DNA of 64,000 bases from Mannheimia granulomatis (GCF_013377255.1 NZ_CP016614.1:1620021-1684020); one strand, 5' to 3'. Shown: positions 1,887 through 63,245, numbered from the stretch's first letter. The notes: a model not told the origin generated them from the sequence alone. Numbers and translations: made by a program.

Positions 1887-3686
1887 ATGAACACCACCGC
1901 AATTTCTGTTTTAAATAATGTTTTTGGCTACCAAAAATTCCGAGACGGGCAAGAAGAAGTCATTAATGCCGTTTTAGAAAAGCGCGATTGCTTAGTCATT
2001 ATGACGACCGGTGGTGGAAAATCTCTTTGCTATCAAGTGCCTGCCCTTTGCTTGGAAGGCATCACCCTTGTGATCTCACCACTGATTTCGTTAATGAAAG
2101 ATCAGGTTGATCAGCTCATTACTAACGGTATTGAAGCCGCTTATCTCAATTCAACCCAAAGCATTGAAGAGCAGCAGCAAGTCGAGCAAAAAGCTTTATC
2201 CGGACAATTAAAACTCCTTTATCTTTCACCAGAAAAAGTAATGACTCAAGGCTTCTTCCAATTTATTTCACTATGTAAAATCAGTTTTATTGCGGTAGAT
2301 GAAGCTCATTGTGTTTCCCAATGGGGACATGATTTCCGCCCGGAATATACCTTACTTGGTAGATTACGTAATACCTTTCCAAATGTACCGTTAATGGCCT
2401 TAACTGCCACGGCAGATCCTACAACTCGAGCAGACATTCTGCATCATTTACGCTTACAGCAGCCACATATTTATTTAGGCAGTTTTGACCGCCCTAATAT
2501 TCGCTATACAGTGCAAGAAAAATTCAAACCGTTAGAACAGCTAGTCCAGTTTATCCATAAACAGCAAGGTAAAAGCGGCATTATTTACTGTAATAGTCGT
2601 AAAAAAGTAGAAGAAATTACCGAGAAACTCTCTGCACGCAAAATTAGTGTTATGGGTTATCACGCTGGTATGAGTTTTGAACAACGTGAAGTAGTACAAA
2701 ATGCCTTTCAGCGGGATAATATCCAAATTGTAGTGGCAACCATTGCCTTTGGAATGGGAATTAATAAATCAAATGTTCGTTTTGTAGTGCACTTTGACTT
2801 ACCTCGCTCAATTGAATCTTACTATCAAGAAACAGGGCGAGCAGGACGAGATGATTTACCCTCAGAAGCCGTTCTTTTCTACGATCCAACTGATTATGCT
2901 TGGTTACAAAAAATACTACTGGAAGAACCGGAAAGCGAGCAACGTAATATTAAACAGCATAAACTACAAGCCATAGGAGCATTTGCTGAATCACAAACCT
3001 GTCGCAGATTAGTGCTACTTAACTATTTCGGTGAACACAAGCAAGAAGCTTGTAAAAACTGCGATATCTGTTTAGACCCTCCACAGAAATATGATGGCTT
3101 ACTCGATGCACAAAAAGTCATGTCTGTAATCTATCGTACAGGTCAAATTTTTGGCCAACACCATGTAATTGCTGTATTGCGGGGTATGAATAATCTTAAA
3201 ATTCGTGAACATAATCACGATACCCTATCCGTTTACGGTATCGGCAAAGAACAAAGCCAAAATTACTGGTTGAATGTGATTCGACAACTCATTCACTTAG
3301 GACTAATTTATCAAAATATTGCTAATCACTCTGCGCTACAACTTACAGAAAGTGCCAGAGCTTTTTTACGCGGAGAGAAACCTCTACAACTGGCATTACC
3401 ACGTTTAGGTATTTCAGCTACGGCATTCGTTCAGAAACAAACCAGCCAACGTTATGATAAAGATCTCTTTGCTCGGTTACGCTTCCTGCGTAAACAAATT
3501 GCAGATAAAGAAAATATTCCACCTTATATTGTTTTCAATGATGCGACTTTACAAGAAATGGCAGAATTTTTGCCGACAAGTAAAATAGAAATGTTAGAAA
3601 TAAACGGTGTAGGGGAAAGGAAATTTGAGCGTTTTGGCGAAGCTTTTATGACCTTAATCAAAGAACATCAAAATAACCGAAAATAG
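1887..3686 (+). CDS. recQ: ATP-dependent DNA helicase RecQ
   Basis: 599 aa with Walker [15 protein letters not shown] box, zinc-binding C4 cluster and C-terminal HRDC domain. Confidence 0.93.
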
Positions 3687-3839
3687 GCTGTAAACTAAGC
3701 ATTGATTATTGCATATAGTTTGAAAATCCTATAAAATTCGCCCGTTTACCTGTTTTCTATACAGATAAAAACGAGCACTATAACAATATATATCGTCTGC
3801 TATGCACTCGATTTTAACCAACCTAGAAGGAATTATACT

Positions 3840-4382
3840 ATTAAACCTGTAAAACGTGTTCAGACAAATCGTGCCCACCGTCTTAATGATGAAATTCGTG
3901 GCGTGAAAGAAGTTCGCCTAACCGATGAAAATGGTGAACAAGTTGGTATCGTATCAATTCAAGAAGCATTAGCAAAGGCTGAAGAAGCTGAGTTAGACTT
4001 AGTTGAAATTAGCCCAAATGCTGAACCACCGGTTTGTCGTATTATGAACTATGGTAAGTTCATCTACGAAAAAGAAAAAGCTGCAAAAGAGCAAAAGAAA
4101 AAACAAAAAGTTGTCCAAGTGAAGGAAATCAAATTCCGTCCGGGTACTGATGAAGGTGATTACCAAGTGAAACTTCGCAGTATTATGCGCTTCTTGGAAG
4201 ACGGCGATAAAGTAAAAATTACCGTGCGTTTCCGTGGTCGTGAAATGGCTCACCAAGAAATTGGTATGGACGTATTAGAGCGTGTAAAAGCCGATACAGC
4301 AGAAGTCGCAATGATCGAATCAGCACCGGGCAAACTTGAAGGTCGTCAAGTGGTAATGGTCATCGCACCTAAGAAAAAATAA
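3840..4382 (+). CDS. infC: Translation initiation factor IF-3, starting at an AUU codon
   Basis: Extending the annotated frame upstream gives [27 protein letters not shown], which aligns with E. coli IF-3 [26 protein letters not shown]. The only in-frame start is ATT at 3840, preceded by GAAGGA. This is the conserved autoregulatory AUU start. Confidence 0.85.
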
Positions 4383-4396
4383 TCTGACCTTATATA

Positions 4397-4424
4397 AAGC
4401 ACATAATTTTTATGTGCTTTTTTA
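4397..4424 (+). terminator. Rho-independent terminator after infC
   Basis: AAGCACATAA-TTTTT-TTATGTGCTT hairpin followed by a T run. Confidence 0.7.
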
Positions 4425-4429
4425 TCGGA

Positions 4430-4676
4430 ATAATCTATTATTTTTACTTGCATAGCGGTCATATTTTCGCTAAAATTCGCAAGCTTTTTTAAGCAACAAA
4501 GCAAACAGGCAGACTCAGCAGCCTGATTTGCTTTGAAATAGTAATGTTAATTGCATAGGAATGTGATTAGTGCTTCCAAGAGATTTCCATATAGCCGAAT
4601 GATTATTCGGCTTCAGAATGTGTAATCCGCCTAATGACAATGAAGTAAACTTAAACAATGCGGAGTTTTTAAAACA
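4430..4676 (+). promoter_or_regulatory. rpmI-rplT promoter and long 5' leader; candidate L20 translational operator
   Basis: TTGCAT-17 nt-TAAAAT at about 4449-4477, followed by roughly 200 nt of leader with hairpins (CAGGC..GCCTG, CCGAATGATTATTCGG). In E. coli this leader folds into the L20-binding pseudoknot. Confidence 0.4.
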
Positions 4677-4874
4677 ATGCCTAAAATTAAAACAGTACGT
4701 GGTGCTGCTAAGCGTTTCAAAAAAACAGCTTCAGGCGGTTTCAAACGTAAACAATCTCACTTACGTCACATTTTGACTAAGAAAACCACTAAACGTAAAC
4801 GTCACTTACGTCACAAATCAATGGTTGCAAAAGCTGACCAAGTATTAGTAGTAGCCTGCTTACCATACGCATAA
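4677..4874 (+). CDS. rpmI: 50S ribosomal protein L35
   Basis: [36 protein letters not shown]... Confidence 0.95.
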
Positions 4875-4972
4875 GCCTTTTTTAGGTTGCGTAGATAAGT
4901 ACGGACGTACGGATTAGTTAATTTTTAGTTTATAAATGTGGGCAAATGCCCAAAGACAATTTAGGAGATTAA

Positions 4973-5329
<357 letters not shown>

Positions 5330-5346
5330 TTTAAAGAATAGAGATG

Positions 5347-5377
5347 AGGACGCCCCTTAATAGGCGTCCTTTTTTAT
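5347..5377 (+). terminator. Rho-independent terminator after rplT
   Basis: AGGACGCC-loop-GGCGTCCT followed by TTTTTT. Confidence 0.75.
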
Positions 5378-5455
5378 TAGAAAATAGACTATTTTCATGA
5401 ATTAAATTCCAAATAAGCGGTCAAAAAGCTGATATTTTTTGCAAATGAGGGAAAT

Positions 5456-5731
5456 ATGAAAAAACTGATTTTAATTACCTTACCAGCAATGCTAACAGCT
5501 TGCTCAACACCAGTTCAACAGAGTAGTGTGCCAATGGATATGCAAGCAGTGGCAGATTACCAACAACGTATTATCTCCAAACAAACTGTTAATCCAAATG
5601 AGAAACCAAATGACGAGCCATTAAACCAAAGTGATAAACGAGCTAAAAGCACTGCAACACAAATTGTAAGGCCTGTAATTTATCCTAGCATAGGATATCA
5701 TCATGGATTTGGGCGTTATCGCGGTTGGTAA
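5456..5731 (+). CDS. Small lipoprotein, function unknown
   Basis: Signal peptide with lipobox LTAC|S. 91 aa with a C-terminal GYHHGFGRYRGW. Confidence 0.55.
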   Translation: MKKLILITLPAMLTACSTPVQQSSVPMDMQAVADYQQRIISKQTVNPNEKPNDEPLNQSDKRAKSTATQIVRPVIYPSIGYHHGFGRYRGW

Positions 5732-5742
5732 AATAAGCTTAT

Positions 5743-6372
5743 CTATTGGCAAATTTTTTGCCAAAGTTGACCGCTTGTAGGCTCTGCATTTACGCAGATT
5801 CTTTCGCCATCATATTCAAAATCAAGCTGATAAGCATGTAAGTAAACTCTATCTGCTGCCGTTCCCGAATAGAGCCTATCACCTAAAATCGGGCTACCTA
5901 AGCTTTTCATCGCAACCCTTAACTGATGTGTTTTGCCGGTTTTGGGTTGCAGAAGAAAATGGCGTAAAGGAACTTCGACAGAGTAAGAGGTAAATTGTGT
6001 GACTGCGGGATTTTCTTTACTATGGCACAGCTTCCATGCCCCATTACGGGATTTTTCCATATCCCCCACAATCTTTCCTTGCTTTTTCTTCGGCTTTTTA
6101 TCACTCAACGCCCAGTAAGTTTTCTGAATTTTGTGCTGCTCGAACAAATGATAAAACCGCACTGCGGCCTCTTTATTTAAAGCTAAAATCAATAAGCCGG
6201 AGGTGATTTTATCTAAACGGTGAACCAGCCAAACCTGTTCGACATTAAGCTGTTTTGCTACCTGTTCAGTTAAGCCAATCTCTTCCTCGTCTTTATGCAC
6301 GCTTACCCCCTCAGGCTTATTGATAATAATAAAATCATGATGTTGATAACAAATCATCAATTCTGTATTCAT
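5743..6372 (-). CDS. RluA-family pseudouridine synthase (TruC/RluA-like, short form)
   Basis: HRLDKITSGLLILA catalytic Asp motif and KTYWAL motif. At 209 aa it is shorter than E. coli TruC. Confidence 0.7.
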   Translation of the reverse strand: MNTELMICYQHHDFIIINKPEGVSVHKDEEEIGLTEQVAKQLNVEQVWLVHRLDKITSGLLILALNKEAAVRFYHLFEQHKIQKTYWALSDKKPKKKQGKIVGDMEKSRNGAWKLCHSKENPAVTQFTSYSVEVPLRHFLLQPKTGKTHQLRVAMKSLGSPILGDRLYSGTAADRVYLHAYQLDFEYDGERICVNAEPTSGQLWQKICQ

Positions 6373-6421
6373 TTTGCTATAATCTCTTTTAATTTTTTGA
6401 TTATTTTAACAAGGAAATTCA

Positions 6422-7051
6422 ATGGCACTTACAATTTATTTAGTCAGACATGGTAAAACCGTCTGGAATATTGAAGGTAGATTACAAGGTTCAGGCGATT
6501 CAGCTTTAGTAGAAGAAGGGATTAACGGAGCGAAAAAAGCCGGAGTTGCCCTTAAAAATATTCCATTTCGTGCTGCCTATTCCAGTATGCAAAAACGCGC
6601 CCAAGATACCGCTAACTATATTTTAGCAGAAAATGAGCTATCCAATATTCCCCATTTCCACCACTGGGGACTCAATGAATTTAATTTTGGCTCTTGGGAG
6701 GGCGTAAAATCTGTTGATTTACAAGAACATGACGAATATTGGGTAATGAAGCGCACACCGGCGGAATACCAAGCCCAAAGCAATGGAGGCGAGGTGTTTG
6801 AGCAGCTTTATCAACGCGTTACCAATGCATTTAACCACATTGCTGAACTGCATAAAAATGATCAGCATGTATTAATCGTCTCTCATGGCATGACGCTTAC
6901 TTTATTAACCGCAGTGTTAAAAGGTATTCCTTGGCAAGATTTCCGTAATGAAGAAAAACATTGCTTTGTGATCAACACCGCGATTACAAAAGTGAAAGTA
7001 GATAACGGTAAGGTTGAAGTTATTGATTTTAATAATACCGCTCATTTATAG
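6422..7051 (+). CDS. Histidine phosphatase family protein (phosphoglycerate mutase GpmB-like)
   Basis: LVRHGKTVWN catalytic RHG motif. Confidence 0.75.
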   Translation: MALTIYLVRHGKTVWNIEGRLQGSGDSALVEEGINGAKKAGVALKNIPFRAAYSSMQKRAQDTANYILAENELSNIPHFHHWGLNEFNFGSWEGVKSVDLQEHDEYWVMKRTPAEYQAQSNGGEVFEQLYQRVTNAFNHIAELHKNDQHVLIVSHGMTLTLLTAVLKGIPWQDFRNEEKHCFVINTAITKVKVDNGKVEVIDFNNTAHL

Positions 7052-7324
7052 CGAGCCAAATTAAAAAAATAAAAAGTAGCAATCATTTGTTGTGTTTTAA
7101 TCTCTCATTCATCAATAACAACTTAAAACATAATAAGCGGTCGATTTTCTGAAAAATTTCACAAAAAACTGCTATAAAATATGAAATTTCTAGTCAATTC
7201 ATTGCAAAATCGCTATACTTTATCGCCCTAAATTTTAGGTCGAAAAATGATCTCTCTTTTTAGAGAAATCATAGGAATTAAATAGCGTTAATTTACGCAA
7301 AAAATAACAATATAGAGGTTTTAA

Positions 7325-7888
7325 ATGTCAGCTCCAAATTCAGGAACTAACCCGGCTCCGCTCGGTTTATGCGGTTTTGCATTGACTACTTTTTTACTTA
7401 GCTTAATCAACAATGGCACATTCAGCGGTGAAAATGTAGGCTTAGTATTAGCAATGGGATTTGCATTCGGTGGTACAGCACAGATGATCGCAGGTATGTT
7501 TGAATTCGCTAAAGGTAATACTTTTGGTTTTACTGCTTTCACTAGCTACGGTGCATTCTGGTGGTCTTTTGCATTATTTAAAGTATTTTTCGCATCAACA
7601 GTATCGCCGGAATTTATCGGCTGGTATTTAGTAGCTTGGGGAACATTTACATTAATGATGTTTATTGGCACTCTTGCGAAAGCTCGTGCATTACAAGCGA
7701 TTTTCTTATTCTTAACCATTACATTCTACTTGTTAGCCGCAGGTGACTTTACCCATAACAGTTCGTTAACAAATATTGGTGGAAACTTTGGTTTATTAAC
7801 TGCATTCTGTGCATTCTACTTAGCCGCTGCAGATATTATCAACGAAAGCTTTGGTAGAACCATTTTACCAATTGGCGAACCGAAATAA
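7325..7888 (+). CDS. satP: Acetate/succinate uptake transporter, GPR1/FUN34/YaaH family
   Basis: NPAPLGLCGFALTTFLLS signature; six predicted TM segments. Confidence 0.85.
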   Translation: MSAPNSGTNPAPLGLCGFALTTFLLSLINNGTFSGENVGLVLAMGFAFGGTAQMIAGMFEFAKGNTFGFTAFTSYGAFWWSFALFKVFFASTVSPEFIGWYLVAWGTFTLMMFIGTLAKARALQAIFLFLTITFYLLAAGDFTHNSSLTNIGGNFGLLTAFCAFYLAAADIINESFGRTILPIGEPK

Positions 7889-7910
7889 TCTTTTTGTATT
7901 AAAAATTAAA

Positions 7911-7943
7911 AAAGCTGAATGTTGCTACATTCAGCTTTTTTAT
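7911..7943. terminator. Bidirectional terminator between satP and plsB
   Basis: AAGCTGAATGT-TGCTA-ACATTCAGCTT flanked by an A run and a T run. Confidence 0.7.
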
Positions 7944-7987
7944 TTCATCTCTAATTTGCAAATTTTAACGTAAAAATAACCGCTTGC

Positions 7988-10444
7988 TTACGCCTCTTTC
8001 TGAGTTTTTTTCTCAACTTCAATTTGCTCTGTTTTTTCCACTTCAAGTTTTACCATAGAACCTTGAATAGTTTGTTGAACTTCAATTGAAATTAAGCTAC
8101 ATAGCAAACTTTCCGTTTCTTTAACTTTTTCAACAACCAAATTATCTGAAGCATCGAAATATCCTTGCTCTTTTAAGCTTGCACTAAAGGTTGAGAAAAT
8201 TGCTTTATCAAAGAATTCCGGTGCGTTAATGCCGTGTAATACGGATAAACGCTGAGCAATCGAACTACTCTCTTTTTCCAAAGCACCTCGGCTGATTCCC
8301 GGCTGCTCGAGTAACACACTCAAGCTGATATAGTAGCGTTGTAAAATCTCACGCACGCCCGCAGAGTGCAGTTGTAGTGTACGGATATGCGGACGGCTAA
8401 TCATCAACATATCGCTTTCGTTTTTAATTACACCTTGGCGAACAAATTCTGCAATAATAGCTTCAATATGCTTGCTGACTTCCTCTTGTTTAAAATGTAG
8501 GAATAATTCAGCTTGTAAGAACGGATAAATTCGGTTTACTGCTTGAATTACCAAATCTTTTGAAATCGCTTCGTGGTGTAACACCATACTTGCCACTAAA
8601 GCCGGCAATACAAACAGATGCTGAACATTGTTACGATAATAAGTCATCAGTACGGCTGATTCTCTATCTAAACGAATCAACTCACCAAAACTATCTTTTT
8701 CAATGCAAACGCCTGAACGAGGCAATTGGATAACATGATTTAACATATCTTCCACAGACTCTTCGGGTAAAGTAACCTCTTTTGAATAAGGCACATTTCT
8801 AAATAACTGAACATAACTTTCCAGCTGTTCAATTACCTGCTCACGAGATAACGCACGCTGACGGGACGCTAATAAAGCAGAACCGACCAAGTTTTTCGCA
8901 TTTACCGCTGCCGCCTTATTAATATTGACCATCACTTGGTTTGCGATGTTATCTACAGCCTCATTTAACCATTTAGGACGATTATCCTCCGATGACTCTT
9001 TCCACTCAGGGAAATGTTGATTAAGGTAATTATTTACTTGAATCGGCTCACCAAAATTAACATAACCCTGCCCTAAATTTTTCAGTTTTTTAATCACACG
9101 CAACACCAAACCCGCATTCTCTTTCTCTTTGGCTGCACCGCGTAATTCTTTAGCGTAAGTATCTACTTCAAGCACATGCTCATAACCGATGTACACAGGC
9201 ACAATGCTAAGCGGACGATTTAAACCACGCTGAAGAGCCTGTAAGGTCATCGACATCATACCTGTTTTTGGTTCTAACAAACGTCCTGTACGAGAACGCC
9301 CCCCTTCGATGAAATACTCCACCGAATAACCGCGATAAAATAACTCTGCTAAATATTCACGGAAAATTGTAGAATACAGGCGATTTCCTTTAAAAGTACG
9401 ACGAATAAAGAATGCTCCCCAGCTACGGAAAATCGGACCTGCCGGCCAGAAATTCAGATTAATACCGGCAGCAATATGTGGTGGAACTAAACCTTGATGA
9501 TAAAGTAAATAAGATAAAAGCAAATAGTCCATGTGACTACGGTGACACGGCACATAAACAATCTCATGCCCTTCCAAGGCTAATTTACGTACACGATCAG
9601 CGTTTTTTACATTAATGCCTTGATATAATTTATTCCAAAGCCAACTTAACACACGATCTGCTACTCTTAAGCTCTCATGTTTTACATCTGCGGCAATTTC
9701 ATTAATAATTTTTTCAGCTTCTTTACGCGCTTTTTCCGGAGAAGATTTTTTAGCTTCTTCTGCAATGGCGGCTTGAATCACCTCAGAATTAAGGATTTTA
9801 TTAAACATTGCCTCACGATTAGGCAAACGAGGTCCCATTGCAGAATAACGTAATTTAGCAAAGTGAATTTTAGCTACCCTTGCCACTTTTTGAGCAATTT
9901 TTTCATCCGCTCCATGCTCGGTAACCATATAACGCAAAGATACCGCCTGAGAAAAACGGACAAAATTATCACGCCCCGACCAAATCATTGAAATAAAGCG
10001 TTGGAATGAGGTTAAAACCTGTAAATAGCGAGCATCTTCTTTACCCGGAGCTCGCCCCCATAACACAGAGACAGGCACTATTTGCACATCTAACTCTTGA
10101 TTTTCACGATGTAAATCTAAATAACGATAAAAAAGCGATTCTGTTTCGCTTTTTGCCCCCTTTGATTTAAAGAAACGGCGACCTTCGTCTAAAAAGACAA
10201 AACGGGGTAAAGTCTGACCATCAATCATATTATCTTGCAATGGATCGGGTAAATTTAATGCCAAACAGTTTTTTTGTAAAATCAATAAATCGGTTTGTGA
10301 GGTATATGGCAACACATAGACAATAGGTTGCTCAAGGTTGAGTGCCAATTCTCTTATAGGATCATTAGGAATAGCACGAGACTTCACTAAAAGTGAAAGA
10401 GGTAAATTTAATAGGGTTCGATAACAATTTAATAAGCCAGACAT
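7988..10444 (-). CDS. plsB: Glycerol-3-phosphate 1-O-acyltransferase PlsB
   Basis: 818 aa, colinear with E. coli PlsB, with the [12 protein letters not shown] acyltransferase motif. Confidence 0.92.
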
Positions 10445-49065: not shown

Positions 49066-49105
49066 GGTTAAAATTTGCAAATTTTTTGCTAAATTTAACC
49101 GCTTG
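49066..49105. repeat. Inverted USS pair; shared terminator for the convergent pepA and ybjD-like genes
   Basis: AAGCGGTTAAA...TTTAACCGCTTGT. Confidence 0.8.
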
Positions 49106-50666
49106 TATTCAATTGACTCTCCTTATTTATCAACGCTAGCACATCTATAAACAATTTTTTAAATAAAGGCGGAACGGAATGTTCACTTCGATTTCGCATT
49201 TCATTAGATAAAGCAATCGCTAAATCGGGCTTTGATGTCTGTTGGATAGCTCGTTTAATAATATAAGATATCGGAAATTTTTCTTGTGAGCGCCAATTTG
49301 CTAAACGGACAAATACATTGCGTAACCCCGCTTTATAGAAGAAATGTTCAATATCCTTTTGTGGCAAAGTAGTCAAGCGCTTAGAAAAATCTTCGTCCAT
49401 ACTTTTAACTGTTTCTGTATAACGCTTCCCTGCCTCATCACCATCGGTTAAAACATACCATTCAATCCCCATTGCTCTTGCATATTTGATAAGCGGACGT
49501 AGCCCACATTGGGCAAATTCGACAATTTTGATACCTTCCATTTCCAAATTAATCTCAAGCAATCTTGCCAGCTCGCTTAGAATCCATACTTCTGTTTCGC
49601 CTTCTACTAAAATCCACGCTCGAGCAAATAAAACCAAGCCGCGGTTATGATGAATATGGAAGGTCAATTTCCGCAAATCATCTCTACCAAGATGGCTTCT
49701 ATCTAAAAGATAAGCCTGAGTATGATCTTGATAGCGAACCAGACGGCAAATTTCTTTTAAAGGCACTTGAGAAACCACCTCCATTGAATTGGTTGTGGTA
49801 ATACGTTGGCTTGGTAACAAGCTTAGCAATTCCCAAAAAATCGCGATCATTCTAGGGTGTAATTGAGCATTAAGATCTTCAAATAGGATAATCGGCTTAT
49901 CTATGCTATTAGCTTCTTGATTGAACAAAAATAATGCTGAAATATGGTGTTGAACTTTCTCTCTTAGGATCTCATTCTGCTTAAGACGCAAACATAGCGA
50001 TTTCACCTTTTCCCACCATAAGCTGGTATCTTGCATACCGGTTTTCATCAAAGTACGACTTTGAGCCGTTAGAAAATAATATTTCAAAAGCGAGGAAAGT
50101 GCACTTAGCTCTCGTTGAAACTCATCTTGATTCTCATAGTGACTCTGTAGAAGTAGCTCATCATGTACCCGCTTATTCAAACGTGCATCACGTAGGCGGT
50201 AAACCGAATGTTGCCGAATAAAACGCTTAATAAGTTTTTCAGATTGATTAAGTGAAATCGGTTTTAAATGGTGATCGACAAAATGATATTCAGTTATCAC
50301 ACTATCTTTGGTTAATTTACCGCTGACTTTTAGCGACAATTGCCGCAACTGCTCATTTAAAGAAAAAAAGAACGAGAGATAAGGAGAAAATCTTTCCGAT
50401 AAATGCTCATCTACCTGTTCTTCAGAAAAAGTAAACACAAGTTCAATATCTTGCACTTGCTTAGGCGTTTGAGAATATTGGATATGAAAATCTTTAAAAG
50501 TAAACTGATATAACTCATTTTCAAGATTAAAAATCAGGCTAAGGGCATCAATTAAGCTTGATTTTCCCCATGCATTCTCACCAATTAATACCATATTGGG
50601 AAGTAAAGGGAGAGATAAGCGATTAATACCACGAAAACCTGAAATTTCAATCTGCTTTAAATACAT
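49095..50666 (-). CDS. ybjD: OLD-family ATP-dependent endonuclease, YbjD-like (ABC ATPase + TOPRIM)
   Basis: MYLKQIEISGFRGINRLSL...GENAWGKSSL matches the E. coli YbjD N-terminus. TOPRIM region LVEGETEVWI...DGDEAGK. Confidence 0.8.
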   Translation of the reverse strand: MYLKQIEISGFRGINRLSLPLLPNMVLIGENAWGKSSLIDALSLIFNLENELYQFTFKDFHIQYSQTPKQVQDIELVFTFSEEQVDEHLSERFSPYLSFFFSLNEQLRQLSLKVSGKLTKDSVITEYHFVDHHLKPISLNQSEKLIKRFIRQHSVYRLRDARLNKRVHDELLLQSHYENQDEFQRELSALSSLLKYYFLTAQSRTLMKTGMQDTSLWWEKVKSLCLRLKQNEILREKVQHHISALFLFNQEANSIDKPIILFEDLNAQLHPRMIAIFWELLSLLPSQRITTTNSMEVVSQVPLKEICRLVRYQDHTQAYLLDRSHLGRDDLRKLTFHIHHNRGLVLFARAWILVEGETEVWILSELARLLEINLEMEGIKIVEFAQCGLRPLIKYARAMGIEWYVLTDGDEAGKRYTETVKSMDEDFSKRLTTLPQKDIEHFFYKAGLRNVFVRLANWRSQEKFPISYIIKRAIQQTSKPDLAIALSNEMRNRSEHSVPPLFKKLFIDVLALINKESQLNTSG

Positions 50667-54868: not shown

Positions 54869-57800
54869 TTAAGATAAAAATCCGCCAATCCCTTTAAACT
54901 TCTCTACAAAAGCCACGATTTTCTGAAAAACCGTCTGTTTTTTAGTCTTATATTGTGGATTTAACGGGCTCATTTTAGGTAGAAGATCATTTAAATCTGT
55001 CCCATTTTCGCTAGCATATTCTCGTTTGAGAGAGGTCATTATATACCGTTTTGCTGCATCTATATTTAAACTTTCGCTATCAATTAAGCTATCCGCTTCT
55101 CTTTTTTGCTCTTGCTGAGCAAAGCGGAAAAATTCATCAATGATAGTTGCTTTATCAGGAATTTTATCTAAATCGGTTTGATGGATAAAATCAACAACCA
55201 GACTTTCTTTTGCTCGATTATCAATGCTCGCACGAATTGTTCGGCGAATTTCTTCAATCAATGCTGGTTTGTTTTTGAGTTTCTTATTATGTTCAAAGAT
55301 CAACTCTAAAATATAATCTAAATTGATCTCTTGGGATTTTAATAGATCGACTTCAAAAACGACATCGCTCCAATCAATTTGAGATTTTTCCGCATTGCCG
55401 TTTTGAGTTTGTTTCCTTTTCCATTCACGAACATCGTTATAGGCAGAACGATAATCTTGTAGCTGCCTATCAGATAAAATCACATTATTGTTCGGAAGAT
55501 ATAGGCCTTCAGGCTCTTTCAATGCATTGTCTGGATATGTGGTGTTTTTTAATACGTAAAATTCATCGTAATTATGCAACACATTTTCCAAACGCAGATA
55601 CTCGCTAAATAGTTTGGTAAAGGCTTTTTTATCTTCCTCGGTGTCAAGCTGAGTCGGATCTGGGAATGTCATTTGTAGTGCCTTAACAACCTCTCGATAA
55701 CCTCGATGATAATTTCCATTAGTATCTTGATAACCGTCCATATATTCTTTGAAACTACGCTCTAATACGATATTTCGAGTATTTGTATTCCCAAACAAAG
55801 TAATGGCATCTATCGTATCTTGCTCTAAATTACGGAAAGTGACAATATTCCCGAATGGCTTTGTTGCATCATAAATACGGTTTGTACGGGAAAAGGCTTG
55901 TATTAAACCGTGATAACGTAGATTTTTATCCACAAATAACGTATTCAGTTTAGGGGCATCGAAACCGGTTAAAAACATGCCGACTACAATCAATAAATCC
56001 ACTTCTTGATTTTTAACTCTCATCGCCAAATCACGGTAGTAATTTTGGAATTCTTTGCTTTCTACTCCATAATTGGTTTTAAATAACTGATTGTAATCAT
56101 TGATTGCCGATGTCAAAAATTCTTTTGCTGAGCTATTCATTGCCGTTGGCTCAAAGGTTTCATCAACAATTTCACCTATCGCATTTTGTTCTTCATTGGC
56201 GGCAAACGAGAAAATCGTTGCAATTTTTAACGGATTTTGTACCGCTTGTTGTTGAATTTTGAACTGCTCGTAATAGGCTTTTGCCGCATCAACGGAACTT
56301 ACCGCAAACATTGCATTAAAGCCTTTGCCGGTGGTATTTAAGCGGTGTGTTTTTTGATTAAAATGGGTCAAAATATATTGGGTAATTTCCTCAATCCTTT
56401 TGGGGTGCAATAAGGCTTCTTTGGTTTCAAGTGCGGTCAGTTTTTCCGGATTTTTTTCTGTTTCAATATCTTGGAATTTCGGGCGAACATTATTGTAATC
56501 TACCTTAAATTTCAGCACTTTTTCATCACGAATTGCATCGGTAATCACATAGGAATGTAATTGTGAACCAAATACAGTTGCTGTTGTTTCCGCCCCTAAT
56601 GCATTATCGGCAAAAATCGGCGTACCAGTAAATCCAAACTGGCAGAATTTTTTAAACTTTTTCTTTAAATTCTTTTGGGCCTCGCCAAATTGAGATCGAT
56701 GACACTCATCAAAAATAAAGACGACCGGTTGAGAATAAATTGCCAAATCATTTTCAGATTTCATTAAATTATTGAGTTTCTGAATTGTGGTGACAATAAT
56801 TTTATTGTCATCTTTTTCAAGATTACGTTTTAAACCTAATGTACTTTCCGAACCATTTACACTATCAGGGGAAAAACGTTGATACTCTTTCATTGTTTGG
56901 TAATCCAGATCTTTTCTATCTACTACGAAGAACACTTTATCTATAAAATCCAATTCGGTGGCAAGACGTGCCGCTTTAAAGCTGGTGAGCGTTTTACCTG
57001 AACCTGTGGTATGCCAAATATAACCTCCGCTTTCTAAGTTTCCCCAATTTTTAGTTAAATGGGTATTTTGGATTTTCCATAAAATCCGCTCGGTTGCCGC
57101 AATTTGATACGGGCGCATAATCAATAATGTGTTGCTTACATCAAAAACCGAATAATTGATCAACACATTAAGTAGAGTATTTTTTTGGAAAAACGTAGCA
57201 GTGAAATCTTTTAAATCCTTAATCAGCGTATTATCTGATTTTGCCCAGTTCATCGTAAAATCAAAACTGTTTTTATCTCGCTTAGTGGTGTTGGCAAAAT
57301 AACGGGTATCTGTGCCGTTAGAAATAACAAAAACTTGCAGAAATTTAAACAGTGAATTTTCTGAATTGAAACTCTCTTTGCTATAACGATGAATTTGGTT
57401 AAAGGCTTCTCGAATGGCTACGCCACGCTTTTTCAACTCAATTTGGACTAACGGCAAGCCATTCACAAGAATAGTCACATCATAGCGATTAAGATATTCA
57501 CCTTTTTGTTCAAATTGATTGATAACTTGCACTTTATTACGAGCAATCTCTTTTTTATCTAACAAATAGATATTTTGAATCCGCCCATTATCAAACACAA
57601 AATCATAGATATGATCTTGATGAATTTTTCGGGTTTTCTCGATAATACTTTCTGAGGATTTATCGAGATATTCATCAACAAAACGTTTCCATTCCGAATC
57701 TAAAAAACGCACATTATTTAATTTTTCCAACTGCTCACGCACATTCATTAGCAATTTTTCTTGGCTATTTAAATCAGGGCGATATTCATAACCTTGAAAC

Positions 57801-57931
57801 TGCAAATCGGCGATCAGCTCTTGCTCTAAATCGGCTTCGGTTTGATAAGAACTTGGCTTCTCGATTGTTTCATATTTATCTAAAACGATGAAATTATTGG
57901 TTTCTGTGATGGGAGTTGTTTCAAGGTTCAT
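54869..57931 (-). CDS. hsdR: Type I restriction enzyme R subunit HsdR (type IC, EcoR124/EcoprrI-like)
   Basis: 1020 aa with SF2 helicase motifs ([28 protein letters not shown]) and an N-terminal nuclease domain. As I recall it, the sequence is close to EcoR124I-type HsdR. Confidence 0.9.
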
Positions 57932-59015
57932 TATTTACATCCTTCCAATAGCTATAATTATCAATTAAATGATTTAATAAATAGACTACAATATTCTTTT
58001 CAGCTTCTGTTGGCTCTGCCACTTCATCGTCGGTTAATGTTGAATGGCTAAATCGATTAACTTGTCTAGTATATAACTCTTTCTCATCTGGCAACAATTC
58101 AGACCATTTTGCATAACCCAAAAAGTTAGCAGTTTTTTCATAAAGATTTCGTAACAAAGTAAAGTGATACTTTTGAATCTCTCTATTTATAATAGCCTCT
58201 TCAATAGTCTTCTTTAAAAATAAATGATAAGAAAATGCTTTATTGGAATCTCCTTTTTTCTCATCTAGCTCAAAACTGCCATCATCATGCTTTTTAAGAA
58301 AATAACCATTTTTTAAACCTAATTCATTATATAAAACATTATAAAACAATGTGTTATGCGTAGAGATTACAAATTTTAAACCACTTACAGACTTAGTTAA
58401 ATCTGCTAAATCAATTGCTAATTGTATTAGATGATTTTCATCTAATGAGCTAACTGGATCATCTATAAAAATATACTGCAACTTATTAAAATCTTGAGTG
58501 GAACGATCACTCTCGTCCATTTTCAACTCTTCGATTACTGATTTAAGTAGCGAGTAAAAAACACTCCATACAAAATTACTTTCTTCTCCTTTTGAAATTT
58601 TAATATTATCTTCTACTTCATCATTACCTCTAGTAAAAGAAAAGGTAACTTCATTAAAGTCCTCGCTAAATTTTGGTGTCAGTTTATCATTGGTATAGCG
58701 TTGAAAATGAGTAATAATATTTTGGTCTTGAGCCTGATCTTTTAATACCCAGTTGGTGAAACTATTTGGCTGAATTTTCAACTTAGGCTGACTATCTTCA
58801 TTTAAATCATTATCCCAATAAAACAGATCTTCAGTAAATGCGTTATAGTAAAGAATGTCATTTCTTGCAAATTCACTATGATTCTTGGGGGAAACTAATT
58901 CTTTAAATGCTCTTGAAAGCCTTGTTTTACCTGAACCATTAAACGCGTAAATGAGTTGAACTTTCTGCTGTTTGTCCCTTAGCATTGTTGCAATTTCAGT
59001 CAAATCTTTACTCAT
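57921..59015 (-). CDS. prrC: PrrC-like anticodon nuclease (ABC-type NTPase N-domain + R-x3-E...H nuclease motif)
   Basis: Walker A FNGSGKT and Walker B/D-loop [13 protein letters not shown]-terminal LLRNLYE followed 31 residues later by RFSHS, matching PrrC Arg320-x3-Glu324...His356. Sits between hsdS and hsdR, as in the E. coli prr locus. Confidence 0.55.
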
Positions 59016-59030
59016 AATCTTACTACCTTA

Positions 59031-60317
59031 TTATTTAGGAAAATCCAACAACTGCTCCCGATAATACTCATACTGTTTCCGTCTTAACGCAATTTCTTTC
59101 GGTAATCCTTCGCTGATAGAATTAGTCAAGCGATCGAATTTATCTAAAATTTTGACAATTTTTTGTTGTTCTGTTAATGAAGGAACAGGAATCTCATATT
59201 TCAAAAAATTATTTGAATTAAGGCGAATGACTTTTGTTCCTTGTGCATATTTTTCTTTATATTTTGCAAAACGTTCTGTTTGCAATAAATAGGTAAGATA
59301 TTTTGTTTCTAAATCATTATTAGGTCTAAATGCAAACATATCACCTGAAAAAACTATTTCATCGCCTAACCAACCTAATGGTTTCATTACATCTTCAATG
59401 TTTTCACTTGTCCCCGCAATTAACACATCGCCTTTTCTGGCTTTTTTGAGTTTTTTGGCTAATTCAACAGAAACAAAAGACTTCGTTTTATCTGCAAAAG
59501 TACTATAATAAGTATAAATCTGCCCATAATGAATTGCAGGTACTCCACTTTCAGTAAAATCTTTTTTCTGTAATCCATTTCCACGAATTAACTCACCAAC
59601 TTCCCCCAAAGCCTTAAACACCACTTGACCACTGTGGTACAAGGCTTTGGTGATGTCATTATACCCCCCCCTATCTAAATCTTGCGGGAATGTCAATAGG
59701 GTTTCTCGGTAATATTGATATTGTTTTTTCCGCAGTGCTAATTCAGCTTCCAGCGTAGCTTCCAGCTCAGTGAATTTGTCAAGTGTTTTTACAATTTTTT
59801 CTTGGGTTGAGAGTGGGGGGATTGGGATTATTATTTTAGCTAATTCCTTCATTGGAACACTTTTAACCGTACCTCCAGCAGATTTACTTAAAAAATCTTT
59901 TCTAATGAAATCTATTTCAAAAAGATATAAAAGGAATTTAGGCAAAATTATATTCTTCTTTGGTTTTATGGCATAAACTCCTTCTTTGATATTCCAATTC
60001 CTAGGTTCTTTGTCAATCAGTGCTACATTTCCAATAGTCCCTGTTCCAGAAAATAAAATATCTCCAATTTCTAAATTAGAACGGTTATTACATAATTTCA
60101 ACGCTTCATCATTTAATTTATCAGTTTTATCAGTAAAAATGATTTTATGATTTTGTAATTCTCTAATTGTTACATAGTAATTAGTTGCATCAGGTGTATT
60201 TAATGTAAAAAATTGTCTTGGATTTAAACCTGTTTTTATCGAATGACAAACTTCCCCCAAAGGCTTCCACTCAACCTCAGCCCCATTTAATAATTTCTCA
60301 ATAATTTGATTACTCAT
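59031..60317 (-). CDS. hsdS: Type I restriction-modification specificity subunit HsdS (two target-recognition domains, type IC-like)
   Basis: Two variable target-recognition domains separated and followed by the conserved repeats ELALRKKQYQYYRETLLTFP and EIALRRKQYEYYREQLLDFP. Confidence 0.9.
   Translation of the reverse strand: MSNQIIEKLLNGAEVEWKPLGEVCHSIKTGLNPRQFFTLNTPDATNYYVTIRELQNHKIIFTDKTDKLNDEALKLCNNRSNLEIGDILFSGTGTIGNVALIDKEPRNWNIKEGVYAIKPKKNIILPKFLLYLFEIDFIRKDFLSKSAGGTVKSVPMKELAKIIIPIPPLSTQEKIVKTLDKFTELEATLEAELALRKKQYQYYRETLLTFPQDLDRGGYNDITKALYHSGQVVFKALGEVGELIRGNGLQKKDFTESGVPAIHYGQIYTYYSTFADKTKSFVSVELAKKLKKARKGDVLIAGTSENIEDVMKPLGWLGDEIVFSGDMFAFRPNNDLETKYLTYLLQTERFAKYKEKYAQGTKVIRLNSNNFLKYEIPVPSLTEQQKIVKILDKFDRLTNSISEGLPKEIALRRKQYEYYREQLLDFPK
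59664..59671 (-). repeat. G8 homopolymer in hsdS (C8 on the + strand), codons R-G-G of the DLDRGGYND segment at the start of the second target-recognition domain
   Basis: Read directly: ATACCCCCCCCTATC. Confidence 0.9.
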
Positions 60318-60320
60318 TTT

Positions 60321-60390
60321 GCAAATTTTCCTGATTTTTATACCGCTTGTTTTAGATTGTGGCGAATGTAATTCACCCCTACGATGATAA
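60321..60390. repeat. Direct repeat copy B (hsdS leader), about 70 bp, containing a USS core and a short hairpin
   Basis: GCAAATTTTCCTGATTTTTATACCGCTTGTTTTAGATTGTGGCGAATGTAATTCACCCCTACGATGATAA is about 85% identical to copy A. Confidence 0.8.
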
Positions 60391-60480
60391 CCTTTGATAA
60401 AATTTCAACCGTTTTTCAAGTCTTGACAATTTAAATTATTGACCTTTTGATCCATTTCAGTATAATGACCCCCAATAACT

Positions 60481-60530
60481 CCCCTAGCTTTGCCAACCCA
60501 CGAGGTTGGAACTACAAGGTTGGGGGCTTT
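60481..60530. repeat. GC-rich nested inverted repeat downstream of abi
   Basis: CCCCTAGC...CCAACCCACGAGGTTGG...GGTTGGGGG. Confidence 0.5.
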
Positions 60531-60534
60531 CTTT

Positions 60535-61446
60535 TTAGGCTTTCTGCCATAATTTCCACTGACTCAAATCTGTCACAATACCCATTTGTTGTAAATTAAT
60601 CGCATCATTTTCAACATTGGGAAATTCTTCCAAAAGTGCCAAAAATCTTGCTCCCCAAGTTGAATTTGGGCAAATCACATCTAACATACGCTTCATTAAA
60701 CAAAAATAGACAAAAGGCTGAGCAACATTAAGCTGTTTCCATTGTGCATCTTGTAAGCCTTTCAGATTTGCTTTGAAAATAATCGGCTTATTCCACAAGC
60801 GGCTATGATGAGCGGAGACATTTCGGATAAAATTAAAAGCGTGCAAATGCGTTTGTAAATGTTTCCCGTCTTTTAAGTGATAAATTTTGGCAATGCGGTC
60901 TTTATCTTTCGATAACATTCCCTTGTAAAGCATCGACATTGTGCCGAAATCCCATACTTCGCTGGCTGCCCAAATCGGTAAATCGCCATAATGTTCTAAA
61001 TGATGCTTAACAAAACTACTTTCTGATTCTCTATTGATTAGATTTTGATATTTATCTAACCATTTTTGATGTTCAAAGTGCGGTTCAAAATACTGTGATT
61101 TTTGATGAACTAATGGTTCATATTTACCTAATTCATAGGCAATACTCACTCTTAAAGCAATTTCAATACGTTCTAAAGCATCAAGTGCTAACTGTCTGAG
61201 CTTTTTGTCAAAAATATACAATGCTTTTACATCTTCAAAACGGCTATTAGGAATAAACTGATCTAGCCGATTTTTAGGATTGCCTGGATCTATTTGTCGA
61301 AAAGAATACAGATACCCACTTAGCCGATAATAACCAAGACTTTTCAAGTAGCCTAAAGCTTTCTTTTCGTCATTAATCAATAGCCCTCTTTCTTGTAAAA
61401 GATCGAGTTGTTCATTAAAACTTTTCCAAAGTTTCTGCTGCTTCAT
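60535..61446 (-). CDS. Abi_2-family abortive infection protein (AbiD/AbiF-like)
   Basis: N-terminal ...SFNEQLDLLQERGLLINDEKKALGYLKSLGYYRLSGYLYSF and the RNVSAHHSRLWN motif, both characteristic of Pfam Abi_2. Start set at MKQQKLW (ATG); the ORF track begins at an upstream TTG. Confidence 0.65.
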   Translation of the reverse strand: MKQQKLWKSFNEQLDLLQERGLLINDEKKALGYLKSLGYYRLSGYLYSFRQIDPGNPKNRLDQFIPNSRFEDVKALYIFDKKLRQLALDALERIEIALRVSIAYELGKYEPLVHQKSQYFEPHFEHQKWLDKYQNLINRESESSFVKHHLEHYGDLPIWAASEVWDFGTMSMLYKGMLSKDKDRIAKIYHLKDGKHLQTHLHAFNFIRNVSAHHSRLWNKPIIFKANLKGLQDAQWKQLNVAQPFVYFCLMKRMLDVICPNSTWGARFLALLEEFPNVENDAINLQQMGIVTDLSQWKLWQKA

Positions 61447-61460
61447 ATTTATAATTATTT

Positions 61461-61535
61461 GCAAATTTTTCTGATTTTTATACCGCTTGTTTTTATGTCT
61501 TAGGGCGAATATGATTCGCTGCTACGATGATAATC
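61461..61535. repeat. Direct repeat copy A (upstream of abi), about 75 bp, with a USS core and a GCGAAT/ATTCGC hairpin
   Basis: GCAAATTTTTCTGATTTTTATACCGCTTGTTTTTATGTCTTAGGGCGAATATGATTCGCTGCTACGATGATAATCC. Confidence 0.8.
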
Positions 61536-61595
61536 CTGATTTTGGGAATATTTATCTATTTTTGTAGGGGCGGATTATATCCGCCCTCTAATCAT

Positions 61596-63143
61596 TTATC
61601 CGTTTTCAATCTCCGCCACTATTTCATCAATTTCCCTCCGCAAGCGGTCAATTTTTGCCACCGTTTCACTAATTTCGGCATTGAGTTCAGTAATGTTAAT
61701 CACTTCTCGGGTATCTTTTTGTTCGACATAAGAGCTTACCGCAAGATTGTACTCATTATCCGCAATTTTGCGATTATCGACTGATTTTGCTAAATGATCC
61801 ACATCGGCTTTATCAGAAAAAAGTTGGAGAATTTCAGCAATATGCTCATCGGTTAGTACATTATTGTTGGTTTCTTTCTTAAACAGTTCGCTTGCATCAA
61901 TAAACTGGGTTTTTGTATCAGTTTTATGCTTGGAAAGCACTAAAATATTCGTTGCAATACTTGTGCCAAAGAAAAGATTTGGCGGTAGTGCAATTACGGT
62001 TTCTACAACATTTTGCTCAATGAGATATTGACGAATTTTTTGCTCTGCACCGCTACGATAGAAAATACCGGGGAAAGTGACAATCGCAGCACGCCCTTTT
62101 GCTGAAAGATAATTTAAGGCGTGCAGAATAAAGGCAAAATCGGCTTTGGATTTCGGTGCGAGAATACCCGCCGGTGCAAAACGCTCATCATTAATTAATG
62201 TTGGGTCATCAGAACCAATCCATTTAATCGAATAAGGCGGATTAGATACAATCGCATCAAAAGGTTTATCATCTTTTAATTTTGGGTTGATCAGCGTATC
62301 GCCCAATTCAATATGGAATTTGTCATAATTGATATTATGCAAAAACATATTCATACGAGCGAGGTTGTAGGTGGTATGATTGATCTCTTGCCCAAAGAAG
62401 CCTTCTTCAATCACGTGATCATCAAATTGTTTTTTCGCTTGTAGTAATAACGAGCCAGAACCACAAGCCGGATCATAAATTTTATTAACAGTAGTTTGTC
62501 CATATAAAGCTAGTTGTGCAATCAATTTAGACACATTTTGCGGAGTGAAAAACTCTCCACCAGATTTACCAGCATTTGCTGCATAGTTTGAAATCAGAAA
62601 CTCATAAGCATCACCAAACAAATCAATTTGATTATCTTCAAAACGACCAAAATCGAGTTCCGCTACGCCTTTTAATACCGCAGCAAGACGTTTACTTTTT
62701 TCACTGACACTACTGCCCAATTTACTTGATCTTGTATCAAAATCAGCAAATAAGCCTTTAATATCTTGTTCCGATGGATAACCTACAGCAGAACTTTCAA
62801 TAGCCTCAAAAATCTCAGCCAATTCAGTATTGAGTGCCTGATTTTGGTGTGCAGTTTTTGCTACATTTTTAAATAACTGACTTGGATAAATAAAATAGCC
62901 TTTGGTTTTAATCGCATCTTCTTTAATGCCAAATGCATCAATTTCTTCATCGGAATAGGTAGAATAATCAACACTTTCATCACCGTTAGCGATATATTCT
63001 GCAAAATTTTCACTAATAAATCGGTAAAACAATGTGCCTAATACATATTGCTTAAAATCCCAACCATCTACCGCTCCACGAACTTCGTTTGCAATTCGCC
63101 AGATTTGACGCTGGAGTTCTGCTCTTTGTTGAATAGTTGCCAT
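61596..63143 (-). CDS. hsdM: Type I restriction-modification methyltransferase subunit HsdM (N6-adenine, type IC-like)
   Basis: NPPYSIKW motif IV, AdoMet motif ([11 protein letters not shown]), N-terminal HsdM_N domain; 515 aa. Confidence 0.92.
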
Positions 63144-63174
63144 TTATTTGTTCCTAATATTACTCGTATACTAA

Positions 63175-63245
63175 AGCGGTCGAATTTCCCCAAATTTTTG
63201 CACATTGTTTATTTGCAAAATTCTCTGAAAAAACGACCGCTTGTT
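63175..63245. repeat. Inverted USS pair between gyrA and hsdM
   Basis: AAGCGGTCGAA ... ACGACCGCTTGTT. Confidence 0.8.

Follow-up and report, generated by a model that had tools for sequence, protein, structure and literature searches.

A type IC restriction locus with a prrC homologue and a likely autonomous AbiF-like toxin-RNA cassette at a variable site between gyrA and uup of Mannheimia granulomatis

Does a restriction locus that also holds an anticodon-nuclease gene and an abortive-infection gene form a single defence system, or is it an assembly of separable modules? The question is raised by an island on the minus strand (54869-63143) of a 64,000-nucleotide (nt) stretch of the Mannheimia granulomatis genome (GCF_013377255.1 NZ_CP016614.1:1620021-1684020), hereafter the window, from the first letter of which all positions are counted. 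A sequence-only reading had described the island as three layers, namely a type I restriction-modification (R-M) enzyme, a latent tRNA-cleaving nuclease and a second, abortive-infection layer, held in one operon-like block. The analysis presented here points to a different arrangement, in which the island is likely to be a type IC locus of the prr kind carrying an autonomous AbiF-like toxin-RNA cassette in a variable hotspot between gyrA and uup, i.e. three modules of known kinds. The predicted RNA partner of the toxin, which had been missed, is the more useful outcome.

The open reading frame (ORF) listing gives five intact, consecutive ORFs, all on the minus strand of the island, and together with the profile searches it agrees with the order hsdM - abi - hsdS - prrC-like - hsdR that had been read from the sequence. 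The two middle genes, prrC and abi, were both assigned to their families by profile. The five genes are as follows, with protein lengths in amino acid residues (aa).

61596-63143, minus strand: hsdM, type I methyltransferase subunit, 515 aa (TIGR00497, 667 bits; N6_Mtase, 7e-119; HsdM_N; NPPY motif)
60535-61446, minus strand: abi, Abi_2/AbiD/AbiF-family HEPN ribonuclease (RNase) toxin, 303 aa (Pfam Abi_2, 7e-54; PADLOC AbiD, 5e-65)
59031-60317, minus strand: hsdS, specificity subunit, 428 aa (Methylase_S in two stretches; PADLOC Specificity_I, 5.8e-116)
57921-59015, minus strand: prrC, anticodon-nuclease homologue, 364 aa (PADLOC PrrC, 1.8e-140)
54869-57931, minus strand: hsdR, type IC restriction/translocase subunit, 1020 aa (HSDR_N, SWI2_SNF2, T1R_D3 and EcoR124_C, the last at 3.6e-70)

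Judged by sequence, the restriction system is a type IC enzyme of the EcoR124I/EcoprrI family, as had been claimed. The assignment is sound because HsdR matches the HsdR of EcoR124I over its full length (residues 4-1017 align to residues 4-1036 of PDB 2w00, 1624 bits), and the EcoR124_C domain match bears it out as well. LEATLEAELALRKKQYQYYRE and EIALRRKQYEYYRE were seen when the HsdM and HsdS sequences were checked for type IC membership. The duplicated conserved repeat attributed to HsdS is real; the gene encodes two target-recognition domains separated by repeated conserved regions, which correspond to the intragenic repeat families D2 and D4.

Is abi a built-in part of this locus? The abi ORF was listed as 60535-61464, with the real ATG at 61446. 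The protein is homologous to the 'Abi family protein' of PDB 8vz6 (1.2e-32), which is the complex of PbAbiF with its non-coding RNA (ncRNA) (PMC12737573), and its HEPN Rx4H motif, RNVSAH (R208/H213), is invariant in the Abi alignment. The gene lies between two copies of the hsdS leader.

61458-61533, no strand assigned: upstream copy of the ~75-bp duplicated hsdS leader, which contains an Apl-type uptake signal sequence core, ACAAGCGGT, and bounds the abi cassette
60318-60390, no strand assigned: downstream copy of the duplicated hsdS leader, directly 5' of the hsdS ATG

The two copies form the repeat families D1 (97%) and D3 (83%), with a spacing of 1140/1143 bp, and the duplication also holds a small palindrome. 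M. haemolytica has a single leader copy, relative to which the window carries an insert of ~1140 bp in the alignment. The M. haemolytica locus reads gyrA-hsdM-hsdS-prrC-hsdR-uup without abi, and so confirms that the Abi_2 gene was inserted at the hsdM-hsdS junction, as proposed.

Members of the same Abi clade are found in other settings. In Haemophilus influenzae a 67% identical Abi occupies the hsdS-hsdR junction of a type IC locus, in a system of the EcoEI_R_C type an 81% identical one lies between hsdS and hsdM, and in Neisseria meningitidis a 68% identical one lies between nrdA and nrdB, with no R-M genes (8001-8981 of the retrieved loci). In most of the contexts the upstream gene ends 2-20 nt from the abi start. 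The gene looks like an autonomous, separately acquired cassette rather than a wired-in third layer, because members of the same clade, each time accompanied by the small RNA gene, are also found at other positions, in a different type I system and away from any R-M locus. The N. meningitidis abi ORF as called overlaps the 3' end of nrdA, and the same RNA element lies downstream of it.

The small RNA gene is predicted at the 3' end of abi, on the opposite strand, and comprises the following features.

60439-60466, plus strand: sigma-70-type promoter (TTGACC, 16-nt spacer, TATAAT), antisense to abi; 11 of 12 positions match, and no other site in the region resembles a promoter as closely
60470-60537, plus strand: predicted small RNA of ~65 nt, convergent with abi and a candidate RNA antitoxin; its promoter is conserved, its hairpin covaries and a U-tract follows

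All 17 of the 17 homologous loci retain both promoter hexamers, with a spacer (16/17 nt) of varying sequence. The RNA itself would consist of a 5' CAAYAAC, an 18-bp imperfect hairpin with a 5-nt bulge on the 3' side (60481-60526) and a U-tract (60527-60536), the last of which overlaps the abi stop codon. Approximately 130 nt past the abi stop are conserved in every context, and a nucleotide profile matches only the 3' ends of abi genes. The same is true of a covariance model, R1, which gave no match in the rest of the window or in the loci of M. haemolytica, M. varigena and Actinobacillus pleuropneumoniae.

The conservation extends to the structure. The RNAalifold consensus is -25.0 kcal/mol on the plus (RNA) strand versus -13.95 kcal/mol on the abi strand, and many of the hairpin pairs are G-U, where the opposite strand would have C-A mismatches. 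In the hairpin alignment 95.7% of the cells are paired and both sides have changed in 9 pairs, compared with 1.6 in shuffled alignments (0/500), while structures shifted by 1-3 columns score far lower. The window sequence alone has a minimum free energy of -25.4 kcal/mol (z -3.2). Distant Abi loci, with protein identities to the window Abi of ~54% down to ~36%, have the same layout and a CAAYAYG motif, and here the lower stem covaries strongly, with a score of 0.556 versus 0.185 for shuffled alignments (0/500).

Other identities for the element were considered and rejected. The known abiF RNA motif, RF03085, gave no match at gathering or permissive thresholds: there was none at E ≤ 10 on either strand around abi, and none at the gathering score in 30 related loci. 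The small RNA matched no family in Rfam. An attC-like recombination site, as in an integron cassette, is recognised as an imperfect palindrome at the cassette 3' end with RYYYAAC/GTTRRRY core sites and a nearby integrase; no integrase is present in the window flanks or in the related loci, and the element has a promoter and a U-tract. Both this site and a simple stabiliser of the mRNA 3' end were rejected on the better folding of the RNA strand, the presence of the G-U pairs on that strand only, the -35 and -10 hexamers before the hairpin and the U-tract after it.

What might such an RNA do? AbiF proteins belong to type III toxin-antitoxin systems, in which a cognate ncRNA neutralises the toxin (PMC12373285, PMC12737573, PMC13064643), and in the characterised systems the RNA is encoded upstream of the toxin gene and on the same strand (PMC12373285, PMC13064643). 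The cassette resembles the AbiF type III systems (AbiF-RCd22 of C. difficile; PbAbiF-AbiFr of Prevotellaceae, 8VZ6; RF03085) in that the protein is likewise an Abi_2 HEPN RNase with an Rx4H site, and in that the gene is always accompanied by a predicted small structured RNA, which would have a promoter and terminator of its own. It differs from AbiF-RCd22 and AbiFr in that the RNA is downstream, convergent and antisense to the 3' end of abi. Unlike RF03085, the RNA is a single long bulged hairpin with a 5' CAAYAYG/CAAYAAC, and no similarity between the two is detectable. The toxin gene, furthermore, has no upstream leader in most contexts, which also sets it apart from the AbiF type III systems. 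The convergent small RNA is probably the equivalent, in this clade, of the AbiF-type antitoxin; it is read as such because the characterised AbiF toxins have an upstream RNA, but in this clade there is usually no room for one upstream of abi (2-20 nt).

A bolder suggestion, to which we give rather less than even weight, is that the RNA represents an undescribed class of AbiF-family antitoxins, possibly antisense to the 3' end of the toxin mRNA in addition to neutralising the protein. Together with a toxin gene that has no promoter it would form a compact mobile cassette, which borrows the transcription of host operons (type I R-M junctions, nrdAB) and here would also insulate or modulate hsdS. 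The RNA class is absent from Rfam, though the AbiF literature may already mention a downstream or antisense RNA.

The cassette could also be chiefly an addiction element. Abi and its RNA would then be mainly a toxin-antitoxin pair that secures its own maintenance, hitch-hiking in operons that are often exchanged and under positive selection (R-M, nrd), with little or no anti-phage gain. This is suggested by a toxin gene that lacks its own promoter and lies so close to the upstream host gene in most contexts, next to an RNA gene with a strong promoter; by the location in a housekeeping operon in Neisseria; and by the selfish benefit of embedding treated by Payne 2024 (bioRxiv 10.1101/2024.01.29.577857). 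We consider it unlikely, as abortive-infection phenotypes are known for lactococcal AbiD/AbiF and their relatives (PMC13064643, PMC12373285) and the clade is strongly enriched beside defence genes. Selfish and defence roles are compatible with each other.

A second alternative is the integrated three-layer system, in which the restriction complex governs both PrrC and Abi, the latter as a further latent suicide effector that HsdMSR silences or that senses HsdMSR, and the genes form one operon. In its favour are points from the distribution of abi, for which 80 metagenome Abi loci and the 80 best genome PrrC loci were sampled, each from >560 candidates. Type IC loci with both Abi and PrrC are present in two M. 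granulomatis strains, in M. indoligenes and in A. minor, and type I R-M genes adjoin at least 10 of the 19 well-flanked metagenomic Abi loci of this clade. It has also been proposed that R-M subunits generally silence R-M-linked HEPN proteins (Anantharaman 2013, PMC3710099). However, the clade occupies M-S, S-R and S-M slots in different type I systems as well as the nrdA-nrdB site, it is always accompanied by its own small RNA gene, M. haemolytica retains R-M and PrrC without Abi, and a convergent promoter and hairpin separate abi from hsdS. An integrated system is therefore improbable. The sequence evidence gives no indication that Abi is coupled to the restriction complex, and the conserved convergent promoter and hairpin make a single operon-like block doubtful. 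A simple scan for terminators gave no hit on the minus strand within the island; its overall counts were not above those in shuffled sequences, and it therefore gives transcript boundaries no statistical support.

The view of abi as a cassette leads to the question of how variable the locus is as a whole. The island is flanked by uup (NF050005, 1103 bits) and the C-terminus/3' end of gyrA, with no integrase or transposase between or beside them, in agreement with the earlier reading. Its Uup is 100% identical to a protein assigned to M. granulomatis. It was also correctly described as AT-rich relative to its neighbours; the windowed GC content is 0.30-0.38 within the island versus 0.41-0.46 in the flanks. 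Comparison of the gyrA-uup synteny across relatives identified the island as a variable insertion, the site being empty in one species. The content of the gyrA-uup site is as follows.

M. varigena: none; gyrA and uup are 98 bp apart
M. haemolytica: hsdM-hsdS-prrC-hsdR, without abi
M. indoligenes: all five genes
Second M. granulomatis strain (CP015030): all five genes, but another allele of PrrC
A. pleuropneumoniae: hsdM split, prrC fragmented, and a Bro-N gene in place of abi (2588-9982 of the retrieved locus)

On this comparative evidence the locus is a chromosomal defence hotspot in a 98-bp gyrA-uup spacer, and the island a genuine variable insertion. The Bro-N domain gene in the hsdM-hsdS slot of the decayed A. 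pleuropneumoniae type IC/PrrC locus corresponds to PADLOC PDC-S13. Actinobacillus minor has the same five-gene layout at a different chromosomal site, with an 83% identical Abi and a PrrC that is only 40% identical.

Variation is also seen within M. granulomatis. In the same slot as the window prrC, the second strain (CP015030) has a variant gene (5354-6820 of the retrieved locus) that encodes a PrrC-like protein of 488 aa, 51% identical over the N-domain (PADLOC PrrC, 1.5e-117) and with an insertion-rich C-terminal half. The recognition domains of hsdS differ between the two strains as well. This indicates cassette-like replacement of prrC and hsdS, because the PrrC allele differs while hsdM, abi and hsdR stay 94-96% identical. 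The identities form a mosaic: M. haemolytica and M. indoligenes match the window protein at 94-95% for PrrC and at 85-88% for HsdM and HsdR, and for the latter two the other M. granulomatis strain is closer, at 94-96%.

The gyrA-side boundary of the island is marked by one feature.

63173-63244, no strand assigned: inverted pair of Apl-type uptake signal sequences (ACAAGCGGTC ... GACCGCTT), hairpin-forming, just past gyrA

The pair occurs in both empty (M. varigena) and occupied sites, and in the alignment the island begins directly after it. Exchange by natural transformation and homologous recombination would fit, because the island starts right past this pair of uptake signals. A search for direct repeats at the island ends turned up only the shared uptake-signal pair and a sequence resembling a ribosome-binding site.

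The prrC gene, by contrast with abi, is in its canonical slot between hsdS and hsdR, as the sequence-only reading had recognised from the E. coli prr locus. It starts 15 nt past hsdS and overlaps hsdR by 11 nt, and the M-S-PrrC-R order is invariant in 81 of the 81 PrrC loci examined, which come from many phyla. The E. coli prr locus shares the hsdM-hsdS-prrC-hsdR order, the type IC HsdR and the tight packing of prrC; it differs from the present locus, which has the additional Abi_2 cassette between hsdM and hsdS and a G8 tract in hsdS.

The N-terminal ABC-type nucleoside triphosphatase (NTPase) domain of PrrC has a Walker A motif (FNGSGKT), signature-region lysines, a Walker B motif and a linchpin His (STHN); the NTPase motifs, including STHN, are invariant in the PrrC alignment, as is the acidic/aromatic, family-specific PrrC box. 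R289, E293 and H324 are invariant columns and match the R320/E324/H356 triad of EcoPrrC. Both the PrrC box and the Arg-Glu-His catalytic triad are features of the family (PMC1484252). One stretch is identical at 9 of 11 positions to KYGDSNKSFSY (residues 284-294), the Lys-anticodon-recognising peptide of EcoPrrC (PMC1950546), and retains the equivalents of D287, F292 and Y294. PrrC looks like a working family member: it shares with the E. coli prr protein the ABC-ATPase N-domain, the PrrC box, the triad and the near-identical recognition stretch, although the window PrrC (364 aa) is only ~50% identical to an E. coli PrrC-like protein. A solved PrrC structure was looked for and none was found. 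By analogy with E. coli, PrrC may be latent and specific for tRNA-Lys.

The hsdS gene contains a further element, which may make the specificity of the enzyme variable.

59664-59671, minus strand: G8 homopolymer at codon ~216 of hsdS, past the central conserved region and before the second recognition domain; probably phase-variable

The window, M. indoligenes and two of the M. haemolytica genomes share the G8 form; a further M. haemolytica genome has AG7, and yet another has G7, with hsdS split into ORFs of 227 and 195 aa. Slippage at G8 probably switches between full-length and truncated HsdS, and hence the recognition sequence. NgoAV, a type IC system of N. gonorrhoeae, likewise has a poly-G tract in hsdS, located past the first recognition domain and the central conserved region, and a change of one base in it results in a truncated HsdS (PMC7383803, PMC9577141). 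In contrast to NgoAV, switching is suggested here by differences in tract length between assemblies only. A G[n] hsdS in M. haemolytica has been noted before (PMC7383803).

That PrrC, Abi or the R-M enzyme is a non-functional remnant of a partly decayed locus, as the split hsdM and fragmented prrC at the same site in A. pleuropneumoniae and the split hsdS of one M. haemolytica genome might suggest, deserves hardly any credence, given that none of the five window ORFs is truncated, that their catalytic residues are conserved and that a PrrC sequence identical to that of the window is also found on other contigs.

Is a stacked locus of this kind unusual? The sequence-only reading knew of no characterised functional interplay of three such components; the arrangement itself is not unusual, to judge from the sampled PrrC loci and the literature. 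At least one further embedded gene is present in 43 of the 81 loci, with both junctions occupied in 8; the hsdM-hsdS junction carries an insert in 25 of 70 and the prrC-hsdR junction in 26 of 78. The inserted genes belong to the RhuM (19), YhcG/DUF1016 nuclease (15) and Fic/DOC (8) families, and also encode KilA-N, Bro-N, RelA_SpoT and Schlafen-like proteins; those members of the RhuM, YhcG/DUF1016, Fic/DOC and Bro-N families that were tested match PADLOC defence-candidate models. Abi2 genes embedded in R-M operons, and 'three-level' loci with R-M, PrrC/RloC and DOC/RhuM, were described by Anantharaman 2013 (PMC3710099), and genes embedded in type I R-M systems have been catalogued by Payne 2024 (bioRxiv 10.1101/2024.01.29.577857). 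PrrC/R-M loci with a third toxin (RhuM, Fic/DOC, YhcG/DUF1016; PADLOC PDC-S02/S04/S05) resemble the M. granulomatis locus in their use of the M-S and PrrC-R slots and in their single-gene cargo, whereas the cargo here is an Abi_2/AbiF HEPN RNase with an RNA partner. The locus is best described as one of many stacked loci of the prr kind, not as a distinct three-layer system. The combination of Abi_2 with PrrC was not found outside the Pasteurellaceae among the best 80 PrrC loci or the 80 metagenome Abi loci, of >560 each. Some H. influenzae strains have a DUF3800 gene and a 180-aa ORF between hsdM and hsdS (5344-6584 of the retrieved loci), and in the multi-cargo type IC locus of this species the pair is present in addition to the Abi between hsdS and hsdR.

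How, then, would the three modules work? The type IC enzyme, HsdM2S1R2, would cut incoming unmethylated DNA. PrrC, tightly coupled to hsdS and hsdR, would be kept latent by the restriction complex, as in E. coli, until a phage anti-restriction factor disabled the enzyme, upon which PrrC would cleave tRNA-Lys in the anticodon loop. To our knowledge, no phage activator (Stp-like) has been reported for Mannheimia. The third module would be the AbiF-like toxin-antitoxin cassette in the hsdM-hsdS spacer, of which the HEPN RNase gene would be transcribed by read-through from the host operon and the convergent RNA of ~65 nt from its own promoter to its own terminator. The RNA would most likely neutralise the RNase by binding to it, in the manner of the known AbiF RNAs, by base-pairing with the 3' end of the abi mRNA, or by both, and a fall in RNA level upon phage infection would release the RNase.

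Several points weigh against this account. The RNA has no match to RF03085 and lies downstream on the opposite strand, unlike the characterised AbiF RNAs, and it is because of these differences that we infer the equivalence to those RNAs rather than observe it. That Abi and PrrC are found together in at least four genomes of the Pasteurellaceae might be due to a functional synergy that is invisible to sequence analysis. The latency and tRNA-Lys specificity proposed for PrrC are extrapolated from a 50% identical E. coli relative and from motif conservation, and the G7 allele, seen only once, might stem from a sequencing error in the homopolymer.

The locus is a further example of type I R-M loci, and especially PrrC loci, as landing pads for defence genes. 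The relatives provide a natural series for the study of module interaction, from the empty site of M. varigena, through R-M and PrrC in M. haemolytica and the addition of Abi in M. granulomatis and M. indoligenes, to the decayed locus of A. pleuropneumoniae. In the current view Cas13 descends from AbiF-type toxins, and the RNAs of these toxins were the predecessors of the CRISPR RNAs. A proteobacterial Abi_2 clade (~33-100% identical to the window Abi) with an RNA that is differently placed and shaped would broaden this AbiF/Cas13 picture. The likely phase-variable hsdS would be relevant to methylome-dependent gene regulation and to transformation barriers in this group of veterinary pathogens.

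Outside the island, 49095-50666 (minus strand) encodes a 523-aa OLD-family protein (DUF2813, AAA_15, OLD-like TOPRIM) adjoining ppnN. The OLD-family gene looks like a core gene and not part of the island, because M. haemolytica, M. varigena and A. minor also have it next to ppnN.

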